IMG/VR virus record: IMGVR_UViG_2675903578_000015
Length of the DNA: 8,991 bases
Source: a virus
Lineage: Duplodnaviria; Heunggongvirae; Uroviricota; Caudoviricetes
Direction: 5' to 3' (one strand)
Positions 2,007 to 8,587 of the stretch are shown here, in pieces; positions within the stretch are counted from its first letter, which is position 1, and each line of letters begins with the position of its first letter. The notes beneath the pieces are model-generated. The model was given only the letters and a program-made list of their open reading frames with translations, ran no database searches and was not told the origin of the DNA. Position numbers and translations under genes: made by a program.

Positions 2007-2800
2007 TCGATTACACTGTATTCCCCGGTTAATACAGAGGAATCTGCAGGATCGATTGTCAGTGGTTCCTTTTCATCCATTGATACTGCACGCTGGATCT
2101 CAATTGATACGGGCAGATATTTGAACAGGCGACGAATAGCCGTTTTCTTTGCCATTTCTTCCCAGTGAGTTACCCACGGCCCGTTATTACCAGCTTTACT
2201 CTGGCTGCGCACCAGCTCAATCTGTTTGCGCGTCATAACTTCAAACTGAGTACCTCCGTCTTTCAGTCTTGCGACAGCATAGACGTGGGTAACAGGGGCA
2301 TCTTCGTTTTCTCCTGGGCGGTGTATTAACTTTTCATCAAGGCCAAATTCGAAATTAAACTCGTCACCTTCACGGACAACACGGGCTGACAGGCTGGCGA
2401 TTTGACCTGAACGGCGAGCCAGATCAATCATGCCGCGATAGCCAATGATTAGCTGAACGTTTTTTTTACCGCTCTTTTCGTTTTTATTACCAAAAGGCAG
2501 TAAATATGCATGACCGAGGGCGCTACCGGGCTCAAGTCCGAGCTGTGAACACTGTACGATTGCACTGACAAAACTCATAGTGTCACAGTTTCCTAACGCC
2601 GGAACTTTACGAATTTCTGTGGTGGCGATACGGATCATACGTTCAGCCGTCATATGGCGTGGAAGAGCTGCTGCCAGTTGCTCTTTCATTGATGGCTGGT
2701 TAATAAAACTAATCACGTCGTTATTTTTAATTGCTGCTGGTGCACGGTTTCCCTGAGTTTTTTGCAGATCGGCTTTTGCGATTGGTGGTTGCTTAGTCAT
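1991..2800 (-). CDS. recT: RecT single-strand annealing protein (Rac recombinase); 3' end and stop codon lie inside the masked block
   Basis: ATG at 2800-2798 preceded by AAGGAA. Translation [16 protein letters not shown]...[10 protein letters not shown] matches recalled RecT. The 1991 end is inferred from the recalled 269-aa length, not observed. The 434-aa ORF in the track is an artefact of reading through N. Confidence 0.88.
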
Positions 2801-5393
2801 TTGCATATTCCTTAGCCCAGCGGGGCAGTGATAACGTCTTAATAGCTGGCCATTCATCGGTATTGAGGCAGTCAGCCAGGGTTCGCAGATTGCGGTGATA
2901 TTCCAGCTGACCTGCCAGTTTTGCTTCTTCGCCCATCATGAAAATTTCAACCGGATAACGTCCGCATTCAATAGTTGTGCTGGCAACCAGAAAAACGAAA
3001 GTTGGCTGCACTCCAAACTGTGCTTCATAACCGTCACTGTAGAATGCATCCTGAACGTGATAGCGGTAGTCGTAATAAGCGGTTTTGAATCGTTGAATAT
3101 CCGCCGTAGTTTTCACGTCCATGATCCAGTGAAATTCAGGGATAATTTTGTCCGGACGGCACCGACACAAAATTGCTGTTTCAGGATCTTCCCAGTAAAT
3201 TGATGATTCAGCGTGTCCGGCGCTTTCAACAAGCCATTGCCCCAGCGGCAAAGCCATAACGCTCTGATACATGAGTTCAATTTTCCGGCCTTCTTCGGCA
3301 GTGATAACCGTTTTTCCTGTGCTTGCGCATTCCCTCAGAAACGCTTTCTCTTCTTCTTTTCCGGAGTTTGTCCGGCGGTTAAATTCAGGTGCTACGATAA
3401 AGCGGTTACTGAATTCTTCCGGCTCAAGTACCCGGCAGTGGAAAGCGGTTCCTAAATCGAGCGTTTTTGTCTTTGTGGTGTCCACGGGGGCATTTTTACG
3501 CCACAAATACAGTGCCGGAGTATCAGCAATGTCATCGAGCTGAGACTTACTGACACCGGGACCCGCGTGGTAATTCTCATTCGAAATTCCGTAATAAATA
3601 CCTGGCTCTATGTCTTCTACGATTACGGGATCTGCGACTTCGCCAGTTTCATCACTGCAATCGCGATGCGGATCGCTGCCAGCATTCTCATTGTGCGGAT
3701 GTTCAGCGCCTTCCATTTCCTCCGGATCATTTTCCTTAGCTTCAACCTGACTCTCTTCATCGAATGTTTCCTGGTATGTTGCGTCGCCCATCACCGCACC
3801 ACAGTCAGGGCAGTTATCCCCGCCAGTCTGGCCGCAGGCATTGCAGGCTATTTCCGGTTCCTGTTGCACTACTGGCTCAGGTTGATTCATATCCGGGCTG
3901 GTTTTTTCCGTTTCTGGCTGGTTCTGGTACACACAATCGCGAGTCTGGATCCCCTTTACCCATTTCGGATCGTTCGGGTCGCTAATTCCGTCAACAAATT
4001 CACCACGTGATGCAGCAAGCAATTTATCGGCATCGACAGGATTTTTTGATGGAATGTTTTTCCGGGCTTCATGGAGTTCTGCCCGCAGTTCCTGATATTT
4101 CGCATCAACAGAATTTACCTGTGACTGAGCATCCAGCGGCTGCGTGTCCTGATGATGTTCAGTTGCGTCCGGTTCCATTGTTTCAGCCTCTCCCTGTTCA
4201 ACTGCCGTTGTTCCAGATGGTTGCGGTTTTTCTTCATCATCCTGTTTTCCTTCTTCTGTTACTCGCTGCGGCATCGGGGCAGAGGAGCGACCGCAGGCAA
4301 TATCCACGATTTCCGGATCAGGGTTGGCATGATCGGTTTCAGTCAGTACTTTGTTCAGATATTCAGTGACGTGCGCGGGGATGACCTCGATCCCAATTGG
4401 TGCTTCTTTTACGGACGCAACCACGATGGCGCGGGAATAATCCAGCCCGCCAGGCATGGTGATGAATTTGTCGCGGAAAACAGAAAAGGGCGGTTTATTT
4501 TCAGCGATAATTTCCTCAATGCGTTTAGCGTGTGCCGGATGAAGGTTATAGATGTCCAGATCCATTGAACGGGCCAGTACGCCAGTGGCTACGTCCCGCG
4601 CCAGTGACGTCAGATCGTGTACGAAACCTTCGCCGCGATCGGTGAGGTTTCCGCCGCCAGCATTAGCACCGGAAGCCGTGCGAGTGATGTGTGAAACACG
4701 ATTACCCTTCATCCACTCTTTTGTCAGCAGTCCTCGATCGGTGTAGTCAGCGTTCAGGTATGCTTCGAAAAAAGCAGTTATCAGTCCCAGGTTTGAATTA
4801 CCAGGATTAGGGAAAACTTTGTCAGTGTCACGAACCAGTTTGTGGAGTTCGCGAATTTCCAGCGGGTCGAGCAGGCTGGTTTTGTGGGAAACAGCCAGGG
4901 CAGTAACAGCCGGTAGTTCTTCAGCCCGAGCAATGTGTAATGCCTGGAGTCCGTCGCGTGAAACGTGCGTTACCGGTTTTTCGCTGCCGTGTTGAGCAAG
5001 CCAACGAATGGGCAGTTCCTGGCCAGAAATTGGGAGTAGCATATTCTCCTCAATCTCAGTCATGTCTTCGCCGTTGACGTTGGTATTGCCTTGATAGTGA
5101 GCGTTGTCTGGTGCTGCTCCCGGTTTTAGTTCCCATGTCATGGAGTCTTTGCTGAGTTGATAGCGTTCACTCCAGGTAAAATCGATCTCACCTTCAGCGG
5201 GCAGGTCATTAACGACAGGAAAATTCGTGGCAACAGCTTTAAAATAGCTGCTCAGTTTTTTACCTGACTTAACGATCAGGTAGTCCAGAGTGGCACAGGT
5301 CGATTCAAAATCGTTGCTTGCCCACAGGACGACGTCAGGTTCACCGGATGATTTTTTCGCTTTCCGTAACAGGAAGAGTGGTTTTGTGCTCAT
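2793..5393 (-). CDS. recE: RecE exonuclease VIII, 866 aa; C-terminal third is the 5'-3' dsDNA exonuclease domain
   Basis: Uninterrupted 866-codon minus-strand ORF, ATG at 5393-5391, TAA at 2795-2793. The 3' end overlaps the recT start by 8 nt (ATGACTAA). Sequence matches recalled RecE. Confidence 0.95.
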
Positions 5394-5464
5394 TGTTTTT
5401 TAACCTCAACTCAGATTAAAATTCGTTTTGTTCAGTGAATGATCTTGCCGGATACACACTGTTC

Positions 5465-5489
5465 ATAGCCTGCGCCATACGCAGGCTAT
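5465..5489 (-). promoter_or_regulatory. Perfect 10-bp stem, 5-nt loop hairpin (ATAGCCTGCG-CCATA-CGCAGGCTAT) in the racC-recE spacer
   Basis: Read directly: 5465-5474 is the exact reverse complement of 5480-5489. It sits 5 nt after the racC stop. A T-rich tail follows on the plus strand only (TTTCTTTCAGATTT); none follows on the minus strand. Confidence 0.45.
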
Positions 5490-5494
5490 TTCTT

Positions 5495-5770
5495 TCAGAT
5501 TTCACCTTTTAATTTCATTGCAATTAGAGTTGCCAGAAATTCGGCTTTTTTTTCTGCGGGCAGATTCTTTCCGATATGCACCAGGCACATTTTTTTGACA
5601 CCTTCATCAAGTGTTTTTACGTTGCCTGATGGACCATCGATATCAACCACAGTGAATGGGGTTTCTTTATTTTCTGTTTTAATTACGTAGCCAATGCGCT
5701 TTCCTTCCAGATTCACCTCGTGAACAATGTCATCGGTAGTTACAACAGTGGCTTCATAATTGGTAATCAT
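5495..5770 (-). CDS. racC: Small prophage protein of unknown function, 91 aa (MITNYEATVVTTDD...)
   Basis: ATG at 5770-5768 preceded by a strong AAGGAG with 6-nt spacer. The 107-aa N-terminal extension in the ORF track has no ribosome-binding site. Matches recalled RacC. Confidence 0.85.
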   Translation of the reverse strand: MITNYEATVVTTDDIVHEVNLEGKRIGYVIKTENKETPFTVVDIDGPSGNVKTLDEGVKKMCLVHIGKNLPAEKKAEFLATLIAMKLKGEI

Positions 5771-5844
5771 GTTTTTCTCCTTAATTAAGGTTGAGCGAAT
5801 ACCTGCCATTTCTGGCATAAATTCAGTTTCGAATAGTCAATTAA

Positions 5845-6015
5845 TTAAAGTTCATGTGCCATCTGGTCTTTTTCGGCACAAGCTTCACTGCAATATTTTC
5901 TCGGTTCGTCTTTTGATAAAATCCCGTGCATGAAGTGAAGCATTCTTTCAATAGCTTTGCTTTCTTCAACGTCTTTTTTGCAAAGGTGGTAAGCACATTT
6001 TATTTTCTTAGTCAT
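5845..6015 (-). CDS. ydaE: Small Cys-rich protein, 56 aa ([14 protein letters not shown]...CSEACAEKDQMAHEL), putative zinc ribbon
   Basis: Below the ORF-track size cutoff; found by manual translation. ATG at 6015-6013 preceded by GGAG with 8-nt spacer, TAA stop at 5847-5845. Start overlaps the kilR stop as TGATG. Cys spacing is C-x4-C...C-x3-C. Matches recalled YdaE. Confidence 0.8.
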   Translation of the reverse strand: MTKKIKCAYHLCKKDVEESKAIERMLHFMHGILSKDEPRKYCSEACAEKDQMAHEL

Positions 6016-6236
6016 CACCATGACTCCGCCTTTACAGGTAAACCATCACGACCGAGGAAGACTTTAATCATGCGGTCAGTAATGCATGTTTTTGTGGTCA
6101 GGTTACGAATATATAGTTTTCGCTTTTTAATATTGTTTGCCGAGGCAATATATGTCCGGCCTTCATGAAGAACATAATCGCCAGGAGTCACACACTGACG
6201 TGGTATTTCATCAGTTCCGAAGTGATGTGCAATCAT
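6015..6236 (-). CDS. kilR: KilR cell-division inhibitor (FtsZ-targeting Kil protein of Rac), 73 aa
   Basis: ATG at 6236-6234 preceded by GGAG with 6-nt spacer. The 77-aa version starting at 6248 has no ribosome-binding site. Translation [32 protein letters not shown]... matches recalled KilR. Confidence 0.85.
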
Positions 6237-6411
6237 AATTATCTCCATTTTTACAAATGAACTTTGTTGATGCGGTGCCTGGTGCCTCCAGGTGACTGCA
6301 ACCAGTTAACAATTACAGTCGGCTTTCCCACCCAAACCAATAAGGACTAACATGACTTTTAACTGTGCCACGTGCGCTTAGCCGCATTCACCGCATCACA
6401 AAATTCACTTT

Positions 6412-6459
6412 AAAAAGGGCGGACATCAGCCGAACTTCAAGAAAAAAACTGATGCCGCC
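6412..6459 (-). terminator. Candidate orientation-specific intrinsic terminator or attenuator upstream of kilR
   Basis: Inverted repeat GGCGGACATCAG (6418-6429) / CTGATGCCGCC (6449-6459), 11 bp with one bulged A, separated by a 19-nt A-rich loop. On the minus-strand transcript the stem is followed directly by CUUUUU (plus 6412-6417); there is no U-tract on the plus strand. The large loop is atypical. Confidence 0.3.
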
Positions 6460-6677
6460 AGGACTACACACAGCAATGTCGTTATTTACAACCGGAGGCG
6501 CACTCCCACCATTTAAATTTAACAGACAAGACCGACTCTTTATGGATATCGGAAATGCGCCTTCGTGTTGTGCCCGGTTTTATTTCACCACCTCCGGGCT
6601 TCGGTGGTCTCGGCTATACCCCTACAGCGAGAGCTTGTGTTAACATTTCAATACCCTTACAGTTGAGAGTTATTGAT

Positions 6678-7097
6678 ATGTTGGATGTATTTACTCCATT
6701 GTTGAAACTTTTTGCTAACGAGCCACTCGAAATACTTATGTATACGATTATCATTTTTGGTCTCACTCTCTGGCTGATACCGAAAGAGTTTACTGTCGCA
6801 TTCAATGCTTANNNNNNNNNNNNNNNNNNNNNNNNNNNNNNNNNNNNNNNNNNNNNNNNNNNNNNNNNNNNNNNNNNNNNNNNNNNNNNNNNNNNNNNNN
6901 NNNNNNNNNNNNNNNNNNNNNNNNNNNNNNNNNNNNNNNNNNNNNNNNNNNNNNNNNNNNNNNNNNNNNNNNNNNNNNNNNNNNNNNNNNNNNNNNNNNN
7001 NNNNNNNNNNNNNNNNNNNNNNNNNNNNNNNNNNNNNNNNNNNNNNNNNNNNNNNNNNNNNNNNNNNNNNNNNNNNNNNNNNNNNACATCAGAGTGA
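6678..7097 (+). CDS. sieB: Superinfection exclusion protein B, inner-membrane protein; most of the body is masked
   Basis: ATG at 6678 with GAGAG upstream. The visible N-terminus MLDVFTPLLKLFANEPLEILMYTIIIFGLTLWLIPKEFTVAFNA contains a hydrophobic transmembrane-like segment. The frame reopens after the mask as ..TSE-TGA at 7095-7097. Matches recalled Rac SieB; exact start and length are uncertain. Confidence 0.7.
   Translation: MLDVFTPLLKLFANEPLEILMYTIIIFGLTLWLIPKEFTVAFNAXXXXXXXXXXXXXXXXXXXXXXXXXXXXXXXXXXXXXXXXXXXXXXXXXXXXXXXXXXXXXXXXXXXXXXXXXXXXXXXXXXXXXXXXXXXXTSE
6812..7085. other. Masked or undetermined bases (274 N)
   Basis: Run of n characters; hides about 90 codons of sieB. Confidence 1.
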
Positions 7098-7187
7098 TAG
7101 CGCAAACTGTTCTTATTATCTCGTCACCGAAAAATACTCCCATTTTATGAAGTTATTCTGGAACAGCAGGAGTAGACGTTTTAATCG

Positions 7188-7343
7188 TTAGCTTACTGTG
7201 TGCTTCTCCAACCATCGGCGCGCACCAGTTTCGGTTTTAAATGTTTTGCTTTTGGTATACGTCATGGCAGTGAACGTTCCATCCTGGTTGGGGAACACGC
7301 CGCACACCAGGGATTCGTTGTTGCCGAGGTCGATTTTTTGCAT
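7188..7343 (-). CDS. ydaF: Small prophage protein of unknown function, 51 aa (MQKIDLGNNESLVCGVFPNQDGTFTAMTYTKSKTFKTETGARDWLKRHTVS)
   Basis: Below the ORF-track cutoff; found by manual translation of the minus strand. ATG at 7343-7341, TAA at 7190-7188, only a weak GAGA upstream. Closely resembles recalled YdaF but differs at the C-terminus. Confidence 0.65.
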   Translation of the reverse strand: MQKIDLGNNESLVCGVFPNQDGTFTAMTYTKSKTFKTETGARRWLEKHTVS

Positions 7344-7353
7344 TTTGCGAATC

Positions 7354-7488
7354 TCACATCTTGTTGCTGTGTATAGCGACTTCTGCCTGCCAGAGATCCC
7401 AGTCGTTGCTGCGTAAAGCCTGCACAGCCTGGTTGTAAGTGATACCGCAACAATCCATCAAATACTGAACTACTTCGTAATGCACCAT
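7354..7488 (-). CDS. ydaG: Small prophage protein of unknown function, 44 aa (MVHYEVVQYLMDCCGITYNQAVQALRSNDWDLWQAEVAIHSNKM)
   Basis: ATG at 7488-7486 preceded by GGGAGAG, TGA at 7356-7354. The 60-aa N-terminal extension in the ORF track has no ribosome-binding site. Matches recalled YdaG. Confidence 0.75.
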   Translation of the reverse strand: MVHYEVVQYLMDCCGITYNQAVQALRSNDWDLWQAEVAIHSNKM

Positions 7489-7654
7489 CTTATCTCTCCC
7501 CTTAACGCCGGGTGGCGGAACTGAAACCTGCTGCACTGCAAAATCTGAACCCTGCCGTCATGTTCATACGCCTCGGGCTGGCTACTTAACCCCTGACCAC
7601 TGCCTGGTAACTCGAAGTATTGCCCTGCGTTCTGTGGGGCGGGGTGGGTTGGTA

Positions 7655-7712
7655 GGTATATAATGTACTTTGTGTTCATTGATGTAAAGTACTATAAGTA
7701 CATTTTGTGTGT
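7655..7712 (-). promoter_or_regulatory. PL/OL-like early leftward promoter-operator region downstream of racR
   Basis: Minus-strand hexamers TTTACA (plus 7683-7688) - 17 nt - CATTAT (plus 7660-7665). Flanked by ATGTACT (7663-7669), its inverted copy AGTACAT (7697-7703) and the palindrome AGTACT (7688-7693). A perfect TATAAT on the plus strand at 7659-7664 has no matching -35. Confidence 0.4.
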
Positions 7713-7778
7713 AAAAAAATGAGATGGGATAAAGTGAAGCACAAACCCGGAGGGGGACGCTACCGGATTTATGCTGGT

Positions 7779-8198
7779 TTAAGAGGCTTTTTGTTTTTTC
7801 TTTCGTGCTAGCTCTTCGTAAATTGCATTGTACTTCTGTTTTTTCTCCTCAAGAGTTTTTAAAAGTTCATCTGTCTCACTGTCAGGGAGCTCGTCCAGAA
7901 GGTCAATGATGATTTTTTGTCTTGGATTTAACTCCTGATAGAAACGTACCTGTCCACTTTCTTCTGTATCCTCTCCCAAAAGATAGGTTGGTGTTGTTCC
8001 AATGAGTGTTGCTAATTCCCTTAATTTCTCTCGGCGAGGAATTGTTTCGCCATTAAACCATTTGCTAACCGCTTTTGGTGTTAATTTCATTCGACGGGCA
8101 ATTTCTGCCTGCCTTCCATGTTGTTCATAACCAGCGTTTTCACAGGCTAGCGCAAGCCTACTGGCGAACTCTTTACGCGCTTTATCTTCATGAACCAT
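7779..8198 (-). CDS. racR: RacR prophage repressor, HTH XRE/cI-like; 139 aa from the ATG (145 aa if the in-frame GTG at 8216 is used)
   Basis: Minus-strand ORF with TAA at 7781-7779. Helix-turn-helix segment QAEIARRMKLTPKAVSKWFNGE. Neither candidate start has a Shine-Dalgarno. Matches recalled RacR. Confidence 0.85.
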   Translation of the reverse strand: MVHEDKARKEFASRLALACENAGYEQHGRQAEIARRMKLTPKAVSKWFNGETIPRREKLRELATLIGTTPTYLLGEDTEESGQVRFYQELNPRQKIIIDLLDELPDSETDELLKTLEEKKQKYNAIYEELARKKKQKAS

Positions 8199-8277: not shown

Positions 8278-8574
8278 ATGAACCAGAAAACACTTGAAGA
8301 TGTAATNNNNNNNNNNNNNNNNNNNNNNNNNNNNNNNNNNNNNNNNNNNNNNNNNNNNNNNNNNNNNNNNNNNNNNNNNNNNNNNNNNNNNNNNNNNNNN
8401 NNNNNNNNNNNNNNNNNNNNNNNNNNNNNNNNNNNNNNNNNNNNNNNNNNNNNNNNNNNNNNNNNNNNNNNNNNNNNNNNNNNNNNNNNNNNNNNNNNNN
8501 NNNNNNNNNNNNNNNNNNNNNNNNNNNNNNNNNNNNNNNNNNNNNNNNNNNNNNNNNNNNNNNNNNNNNNNNNN
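8278..8574 (+). CDS. ydaS: Cro-like small regulator/toxin partner YdaS; only the first 9 codons (MNQKTLEDV) are visible
   Basis: ATG at 8278 with GAGGG 4 nt upstream, divergent from racR. The 8574 end is inferred from the recalled length of about 98 aa and lies in the masked block, so it is not observed. Confidence 0.5.
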
Positions 8575-8587
8575 NNNNNNNNNNNNN
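8307..8587. other. Masked or undetermined bases (281 N)
   Basis: Run of n characters; hides most of ydaS and the start of ydaT. The 261-aa ORF 8206-8991 in the track is an artefact of reading through N. Confidence 1.

Follow-up and report, generated by a model that had tools for sequence, protein, structure and literature searches.

What do the five small genes lying between the repressor and the recombination genes of the Rac prophage do, and do they act together? The question is raised by the 8,991-nucleotide (nt) stretch of DNA analysed here, referred to below as the window (IMG/VR record IMGVR_UViG_2675903578_000015, Caudoviricetes). The window is the left arm of the Escherichia coli Rac prophage, and its open reading frames (ORFs) racC, ydaE, kilR, ydaF and ydaG are known early-left accessory genes. 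The locus is already known, being a textbook region of strain K-12, and the mechanisms of KilR and RacC are published. New in this work is a comparative map of loci anchored on YdaE, and of interchangeable small-gene slots around RecE in lambdoid early-left operons. The interval is probably a row of independent single-gene modules placed in conserved positional slots, and not one five-protein machine. The genes on which the argument turns are the following.

5495-5770, minus strand: racC, 91 amino acids (aa)
5845-6015, minus strand: ydaE, 56 aa; one base is shared between its start and the stop of kilR
6015-6236, minus strand: kilR, 73 aa
7188-7343, minus strand: ydaF, 51 aa, DUF1391
7354-7488, minus strand: ydaG, 44 aa, the first ORF past racR
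2793-5393, minus strand: recE, with the N-terminal PF06630 domain

The map includes 208 YdaE-anchored loci, 198 of which carry enough downstream DNA to be tested, and the gene upstream of ydaE was surveyed in ~355 loci. The RecE N-terminal domain (RecE_N) was found 130-700 bp downstream of YdaE in 196 of the 198 testable loci. Loci of the Klebsiella clade anchored on RecE_N carry YdaE upstream in 80 cases out of 80, and YdaE and RecE are both present in 78/80 Kil-anchored loci; neither is found in the other two, and one of these, L277, hosts Gam-RecT-zinc finger-YqaJ instead. The genes flanking ydaE vary. The gene directly upstream is either KilR-like (phrog_294), or a 38-40-aa peptide (phrog_22279), or a member of DUF1482, and the three are mutually unrelated. 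DUF1482 corresponds to the Qin lysis protein YdfD, an IspG inhibitor, and the upstream slot therefore holds host-killing genes; YdfB is not the DUF1482 protein of Qin. A candidate C-terminal motif (R/K-N/D-G-D/E-x-P) common to the three upstream families was discarded, being too variable within DUF1482. The middle slot between ydaE and recE is occupied by RacC, by phrog_2434, by phrog_2016, or is empty. Even the members of one YdaE clade (>=70% identity) differ: every one of the three upstream families is represented among them, and the middle gene is present in some and absent in others. A middle gene is missing from many prophages of Enterobacter, Kluyvera, Leclercia and Citrobacter (GTDB loci L169-L200); there the spacer between the YdaE and RecE matches mostly measures 140-147 nt (range 133-147), and its near-constant length hints at a conserved leader, or else at a small ORF or RNA element.

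The original prediction pointed out that kilR and ydaE overlap by one base (TGATG), and took the overlap to suggest a functional pair. The overlap is as described. According to the pair hypothesis, YdaE is a dedicated partner of KilR, acting as modulator, antidote or co-toxin. Along with the overlap itself, this would fit with the presence, directly upstream of each YdaE-like gene, of a small gene which is often overlapping (-8, -7, -4 or -1 nt; gaps of +9 and +30 nt were also found), with the host-killing nature of two of the upstream families (KilR and YdfD), with natural fusions in which YdaE and its upstream neighbour form one polypeptide, and with the scoring of ydaE as 'essential' in one TraDIS study (transposon-directed insertion-site sequencing). 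Yet, the reading of TGATG as the sign of a pair is not supported: over the ~355 loci, and even within one clade, the upstream gene belongs to any of three unrelated families. Nor was the obligate co-occurrence of a toxin and its antitoxin found. Kil occurs without YdaE in POCJ13, L277 and L284, and in most lineages YdaE is preceded by non-Kil genes; in HK225-type phages, where a kil gene is present, it is separated from ydaE by a 30-nt gap. KilR expressed alone from pBAD is fully toxic. Chromosomal kilR, which has ydaE immediately downstream, still arrests growth upon NusG depletion, and deletion of kilR alone relieves the arrest; this literature argues against YdaE as the KilR antidote. In addition, the ydaE deletion of the Keio collection is viable. 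Given upstream partners that can be exchanged, Kil genes without a YdaE, and the toxicity of KilR both by itself and as the product of native kilR with ydaE downstream, the overlap looks like operon packing, and a dedicated toxin-partner pair is decidedly unlikely.

What YdaE is can be partly told from its family. The cysteines are arranged as had been claimed (C7-x4-C12 ... C42-x3-C46, plus four histidines). The protein matches NCBIfam NF041288 with 86 bits against a cutoff of 35, falls into phrog_1520, and is annotated in K-12 as a 'zinc-binding protein', a predicted property. Zinc binding is also said to have been reported by Katayama et al. in 2002. Divergent homologues reside in HK225, Gifsy-1, Gifsy-2, SPN3UB, Klebsiella prophages and phiSTEC1589; in five of these the C..C knuckle, YCSxxCA and the C-terminal DQMAHE are invariant. 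An exhaustive HMMER search of 1.84 billion protein representatives returned 17 clusters, all of proteins of at most 96 aa; the four cysteines are kept in 12 of the 13 representatives read, the exception being P0272, which lacks the first cysteine of the knuckle. The family is narrow, and restricted to Enterobacteriaceae. The arrangement 38-aa peptide of the Gifsy/Enterobacter type - YdaE - RecE in a 517-bp contig assigned to Geodermatophilus sabuli (L170), and the Rac architecture in metagenome-assembled genomes labelled Proteobacteria and Candidatus Nanosynbacter (L207 and L208), almost certainly reflect contamination or mis-binning. No fusions of YdaE to larger proteins emerged from the exhaustive search, and the only fusions found join YdaE to the 38-aa peptide. 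They measure 92-96 aa, and are represented by P0261, P0264, P0265 and P0273, which make four separate clusters at 50% identity, and by phrog_6751. In them the 38-aa peptide (...LAQKGDP) is joined to the zinc finger of YdaE; Gifsy-type phages encode peptide and YdaE in separate genes, which overlap by 8 nt.

Comparisons with characterised zinc proteins did not extend beyond motifs. The Rtr1/RPAP2 zinc finger PF04181 matches YdaE with 28.1 bits, below the gathering threshold of 33, and the likeness is at the motif level only. Prokaryotic metallothionein PF02069 reaches 20.5 bits, with the same threshold of 33, and the corresponding structure, PDB 1jjd, has an E value of 0.2. Both Rtr1/RPAP2 and the cyanobacterial metallothionein SmtA have in common with YdaE a cysteine knuckle and the motif (Y/F)CSxxC(A), and the literal string YCSEACA is found in both YdaE and SmtA (1jjd). 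The four cysteines of YdaE suffice for one metal site, and not for a metal cluster, and there is no phosphatase context. Sequence and profile searches of the PDB with YdaE and YdaG retrieved only the weak SmtA motif match and a chance match to SbtB.

The slot of YdaE, between a kil gene and a recombinase, holds gam in lambda. It is filled by Gam also in the kil-gam-recT-yqaJ module of L277, and P22 carries arf between kil and erf. YdaE could accordingly be viewed as a positional analogue of Gam or Abc, a small zinc inhibitor of a host nuclease (e.g. RecBCD) or of a DNA-end-sensing defence, protecting the substrates of RecET. The hypothesis may be reinforced by the finding that attack through a T6SS (type VI secretion system) is less effective on a ydaE deletion mutant, a phenotype partially complemented. 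However, YdaE has no sequence similarity to Gam, Abc or Arf: homology to these proteins was not found in PHROG and Pfam, either for YdaE or for RacC; the equivalence is positional only. No match was obtained in PADLOC, and YdaE and Gam coexist in phiSTEC1589, where YdaE lies beside a RecE reduced to the PF06630 N-terminal domain, followed by Gam and Bet. The mutant phenotypes, which besides T6SS susceptibility and the TraDIS score include enrichment in transposon sequencing (Tn-seq) under stress, are hard to interpret: cassettes inserted in ydaE may read out into recET in the way sbcA mutations do; outward transcription switching on recET could explain the Keio and Tn-seq phenotypes. A Gam-like function of YdaE is unlikely. 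L277 has a second small zinc finger, unrelated to YdaE, located at 6502-6789 between recT and the exonuclease gene. It is a 95-aa protein (phrog_17137) which carries a CxCC...FCSKSCAAY zinc motif, and resembles C-terminal modules of phage HNH endonucleases. Kinship of YdaE with this FCSKSCA finger was rejected, since the likeness is confined to a 12-residue motif and the hhalign probability is 35%.

RacC, which occupies the variable slot in the window, is the member of the row for which a link to RecE has been published. The protein matches NCBIfam NF007306 with 206 bits against a cutoff of 171 (phrog_4778), and a strong AAGGAG Shine-Dalgarno sequence precedes the start of the 91-aa frame. In a genome-wide screen RacC was the strongest blocker of RcaT, the toxin of retron-Sen2, and its action extends to the RcaT of retron-Eco9 (work by Bobonis et al.; bioRxiv 10.1101/2020.06.22.160242, Nature 2022). 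In the same work RecE was found to trigger the retron by degrading its multicopy single-stranded DNA (msDNA), RacC was said to act on RcaT 'presumably by directly binding', and racC-recE was termed a linked blocker-trigger pair, a definition repeated in a 2025 review of the published paper. The RacC of the window is the exact protein tested against retron-Sen2 and retron-Eco9 (100% identical to K-12/BW25113), and recE resides directly downstream, as in that study. The RacC family has been found only in Escherichia and Shigella. In other phages encoding RecE the same slot is filled by the unrelated phrog_2434 or phrog_2016, or is empty, and its occupant is lineage-specific; homology of RacC to the 95-aa phrog_2434 proteins of HK225 and Gifsy phages was rejected (hhalign probability 0.35%). 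The AlphaFold2 (AF2) model of RacC (pLDDT 78.7) consists of a disordered N-terminus, a four-strand meander and two helices, and has no informative fold match. The N-terminal 55 residues are strongly conserved, and the C-terminal halves are frameshifted in many alleles. Alternative-frame C-termini occur in many variants (P0046, P0066, P0095, P0108, P0071 and others), where, as an example, KKNVPGAYRKESARRKK replaces KKMCLVHIGKNLPAEKK. The recurrent frameshifts are consistent with decay in cryptic copies.

RacC and YdaE change the picture of the interval from which the analysis started. It had been held that only KilR has a known activity, but RacC is a published RcaT blocker and YdaE is annotated as zinc-binding in K-12. 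The idea of four blank proteins is hence to be corrected, RacC being a retron counter-defence protein and YdaE an annotated zinc protein. The view that lambdoid phages carry host-takeover and anti-defence genes at this position is borne out by KilR, which acts on FtsZ and MreB, and by RacC, which acts on RcaT.

At least 80% of the length of the region 5400-7800 finds a match in 1,228 complete E. coli genomes, and the match is 100% in several strains, as EC2. In the RefSeq annotation of the identical EC2 DNA and of K-12 MG1655 the minus strand carries, in order, intR, xisR, (rcbA/ralR), recT, recE, racC, ydaE and kilR; beyond kilR are sieB, on the plus strand, then ydaF, ydaG and racR, on the minus strand. 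The locus, the gene order and the strands are alike in the Rac prophage of MG1655 (racC b1351, ydaE b4526, kilR b1352, ydaF b4527, ydaG b1355). RacC, YdaE and YdaF are 100% identical to the K-12 proteins, and F51C in KilR and R40H in YdaG are the sole differences. A C-terminus of YdaF differing from that of K-12, as originally suspected, does not exist. The racR allele differs, measuring 420 nt in the 100%-identical EC2 and 477 nt in K-12. The five minus-strand ORFs were correctly placed, as coordinates and annotation confirm, and so was their early-left position between racR and recET; all these genes are known to be up-regulated 40-70-fold or more once RacR control is disturbed. They do not form a single uninterrupted block, as sieB, on the plus strand, and the small RNA (sRNA) KilS are located inside the interval, and ydaFG has been treated in the literature as a separate, racR-proximal operon. 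Further features of the region are listed below.

6412-6509, minus strand: KilS sRNA, in the 5' untranslated region (UTR) of kilR; from blastn mapping and K-12 annotation
6678-7191, plus strand: sieB (superinfection exclusion), partly masked by N letters; from EC2/K-12 annotation and blastn mapping
7660-7688, minus strand: putative early-left promoter, TTTACA-17-CATTAT, within the 290 bp that separate racR and ydaG; from a consensus scan
5465-5489, no strand assigned: perfect hairpin with a 10-bp stem, between the racC stop and the recE start

sieB is convergent with ydaF, and overlaps its 3' end. Runs of N (1756-2006, 6812-7085 and 8307-8587) mask parts of the ralR/rcbA/recT-end region, of sieB and of the ydaS region. 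The run within sieB measures 274 nt, against 249 nt of real sequence in K-12 and EC2; the mask thus fails to keep the true length, and ORFs called across the run are artefacts. The antitoxin sRNA RalA (Rfam RF02694, 225 bits) was located at 1557-1735 on the plus strand, opposite to ralR/rcbA and outside the five-gene interval; Rfam and PADLOC gave nothing else of relevance. The arms of the racC-recE hairpin are ATAGCCTGCG…CGCAGGCTAT, and no T-run follows on the minus strand. The hairpin might serve as an attenuator, or as a site of RNA processing with a bearing on recE silencing and sbcA activation.

KilR matches NCBIfam NF008465 with 161.3 bits (cutoff 92) and phrog_294 with an E value of 4.6e-37, and shares 72 of 73 residues with the K-12 protein. 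That it inhibits FtsZ, as originally stated, is supported by published work, which adds MreB: FtsZ-dependent division is blocked, and at higher levels also the localisation of MreB is affected. Native kilR is silenced by NusG, and growth arrest ensues when the OxyS sRNA lowers NusG. Rho is said to limit kilR expression as well, a finding attributed to Cardinale et al. in 2008. The last 12 residues of KilR are needed for toxicity (PMC12482147). This C-terminal tail is intact in the window, and the same as in K-12. KilS is 100% identical to K-12 b4833. A northern blot has confirmed the RNA, which may be transcribed from a promoter of its own (PMC8175672); Rfam has no entry for it.

The genes at the opposite end of the row, ydaF and ydaG, appear bound to the repressor rather than to RecE. 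YdaF matches PF07151 with 98.3 bits (gathering threshold 27.3). The DUF1391 family includes 293 clusters from Escherichia and Salmonella, all homologues found carry PF07151, and the core LGNNESLVCGVFPNQDGTFTAMTYTKSKTFKTExGARRWL is nearly invariant. The AF2 model of YdaF (pLDDT 73.6) is made of a beta-hairpin and a C-terminal helix, and has no fold match. In 80 loci the DUF1391 gene is the promoter-proximal gene downstream of RacR/DicA-type repressors, and is followed by either sieB/kilR or ydfB-ydfC-dicB cargo. As the type of repressor is constant and the cargo varies, YdaF goes with the immunity region and not with what follows it. According to the literature, as of 2023 ydaF and ydaG have no determined function, and the same holds for ydfA, the Qin paralogue. 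YdaG, in which the adjacent CC pair is present as described, belongs to a family of 18 clusters, all from Escherichia (phrog_14709). It matches PF14555 (UBA_4) with 24.1 bits against a gathering score of 21.8 (E = 3.2e-5), and more weakly UBA_8 and UBA_HYPK; no UBA chain was retrieved by the profile search of the PDB. The UBA_4 match suggests, provisionally, that YdaG may be a UBA-like three-helix protein-binding module. In the racR-ydaG spacer, an unannotated 69-aa ORF (7470-7679, minus strand) overlaps the ydaG start and matches phrog_19140 (E = 4e-25). It was rejected as a gene, since a full-length gapless alignment was obtained in only 9 related loci. Its 3' part (…FRHPALRGEIRW) corresponds to a leader that other prophages have ahead of their DUF1391 genes, over-called there as N-terminal extensions reading …FRYPALRGNEVSM, and the ORF is more likely a conserved 5' leader plus ribosome-binding region than a gene.

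The early position makes it conceivable that ydaG and ydaF regulate the RacR/DicA-type switch, or transcription read-through, being stand-ins for N or cIII and not host-takeover effectors. In P22 the place of the two genes, past the early-left promoter and ahead of the opposite-strand sieB, belongs to gene 24, the N analogue, and Rac has no annotated N-like gene. DUF1391 tracks RacR/DicA-type repressors whether kilR or dicB cargo follows, its core hardly changes, and kilR expression is limited by NusG and, reportedly, by Rho. On the other hand, family profile searches revealed neither an arginine-rich motif nor a recognisable DNA- or RNA-binding domain in YdaF or YdaG, YdaF has no fold match, most of the sampled loci are closely related to Rac, and the hypothesis is wholly positional. 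A role of ydaG and ydaF as switch regulators in place of N or cIII is rather unlikely.

A more radical alternative sees in ydaF and ydaG, perhaps along with ydaE, ORFs that are spurious, or decaying in a cryptic prophage, and devoid of current function. It draws on the defectiveness of Rac, on the frameshifts in the C-terminal half of many RacC alleles, on an internal stop in one allele of ydaG and on the tiny size of the ydaG family (18 clusters). However, over ~80 related loci the ratio of nonsynonymous to synonymous polymorphism (pN/pS) is 0.13-0.31 for all five genes, which denotes purifying selection, and DUF1391 scarcely varies over hundreds of prophages. Ahead of ydaG, kilR, ydaE and the 91-aa racC start there are Shine-Dalgarno-like sequences, and the same genes reside in isolated phages, as vB_EcoS-673R7 and Rac-SA53. 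The pN/pS values, together with matches to curated families far over threshold, indicate that the five ORFs are real genes and not chance ORFs; none of the five proteins has a significant match among the PADLOC models. Functionless decay is hardly credible.

A row of independent modules would work as follows. In the lysogen the operon is repressed by RacR, and silenced by Rho/NusG. Upon derepression the first products would be YdaG and YdaF, which travel with RacR/DicA-type immunity regions, and may act in the early switch or bind host factors. Beyond ydaF come sieB, on the opposite strand, and then the KilS sRNA; the 'kill slot' is filled here by kilR, whose product inhibits FtsZ and MreB according to the literature. 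YdaE, a putative C4 zinc finger which all the lineages sampled have between kill slot and recE, would by its context be an accessory of the RecE module, either a cofactor or regulator of the RecE N-terminal region, or a counter to the host response provoked by RecE; its position matches that of P22 arf and lambda gam. The variable slot just before recE holds racC in Rac, whose product neutralises RcaT, the toxin that RecE triggers by degrading msDNA, as reported in the literature.

Several observations weigh against this arrangement, or at least against parts of it. Many of the loci sampled are closely related, and the counts represent non-independent events. POCJ13, a close relative, carries Kil-p2016-RecE_N-Gam-Bet-Exo without YdaE, which is thus dispensable; the Qin-like phage 813R8 has DicB-YdfD-RecE, and also lacks YdaE; in Chris1 YdaE is missing, and another gene sits in its slot. 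The identities of YdaE and RecE_N are only moderately correlated (Spearman 0.36), and the co-occurrence of YdaE and recE may partly mirror inherited gene order. The fusions to the 38-aa peptide speak for a joint action of YdaE and its upstream neighbour, in that lineage at any rate. The UBA-like call for YdaG, provisional, depends on one Pfam match just over threshold. Lastly, the roles assigned to YdaE, YdaF and YdaG are inferred only. The gene occupying the slot in Chris1, a Citrobacter phage (L377, 1220-1591), encodes a 123-aa protein with the putative annotation 'iron-sulfur cluster regulator IscR', and is located between the 38-aa peptide and recE.

A row of single-gene modules remains the preferred reading, and a bolder extension of it may be sketched, which as a whole is tentative and somewhat unlikely. 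YdaE would be the dedicated zinc-finger partner of the RecE N-terminal domain (PF06630), or a counter-defence factor directed against an immune response provoked by RecE. The row kill slot-YdaE-variable slot-RecE would make a 'trigger plus its antidotes' cassette, of which RacC-RecE would be the first solved example, and phrog_2434 and phrog_2016 would take the blocker's part against other abortive-infection systems. As a separate possibility, YdaG and YdaF would be factors of a new type, serving the early switch or anti-termination in RacR/DicA-type prophages without N. The map in any case yields candidates for trigger/blocker or recombination-accessory functions, namely YdaE, phrog_2434, phrog_2016 and the 38-aa peptide. 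What remains of most interest is YdaE, placed beside the RecE N-terminal domain and sometimes fused to the upstream peptide, and the immunity-linked couple ydaG and ydaF. Recombineering makes wide use of RecET, as a rule in the absence of ydaE and racC; should ydaE or racC modulate RecE, or the host responses to RecE, this would be of practical interest.

Early-left operons of known phages and prophages provide the closest terms of comparison. The dicBF operon of the Qin prophage starts past dicA, and includes ydfA-ydfB-ydfC-dicF-dicB-ydfD. As with YdaF, the first gene past the DicA/RacR-type repressor encodes a DUF1391 protein, the YdaF paralogue YdfA. The Qin operon also delivers a division inhibitor and an sRNA, DicB and DicF there, KilR and KilS in Rac. 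The family of YdfD (DUF1482) is found upstream of YdaE in Klebsiella- and Enterobacter-type prophages, whereas Qin-type phages have neither ydaG nor ydaE, and RecE lies directly past YdfD. The PL operon of P22 has the structure 24 - sieB (opposite strand) - ... - kil - arf - erf - abc, that of lambda kil-gam-bet-exo. Unlike P22, which has gene 24, Rac lacks an annotated N. P22 Kil is unrelated to KilR, and P22 Arf, an acidic, cysteine-free protein of 47 aa, is not a YdaE homologue. The arf gene overlaps kil by 11 nt, yet Arf is a cofactor of the downstream recombinase Erf, a precedent for taking the kilR-ydaE overlap as packing. P22, lambda and Rac show no sequence similarity here, and are alike in positional logic: past a repressor and an early promoter come small leader-proximal genes, sieB on the opposite strand, an inhibitor of division, a small ORF which overlaps kil and, after it, the recombinase.

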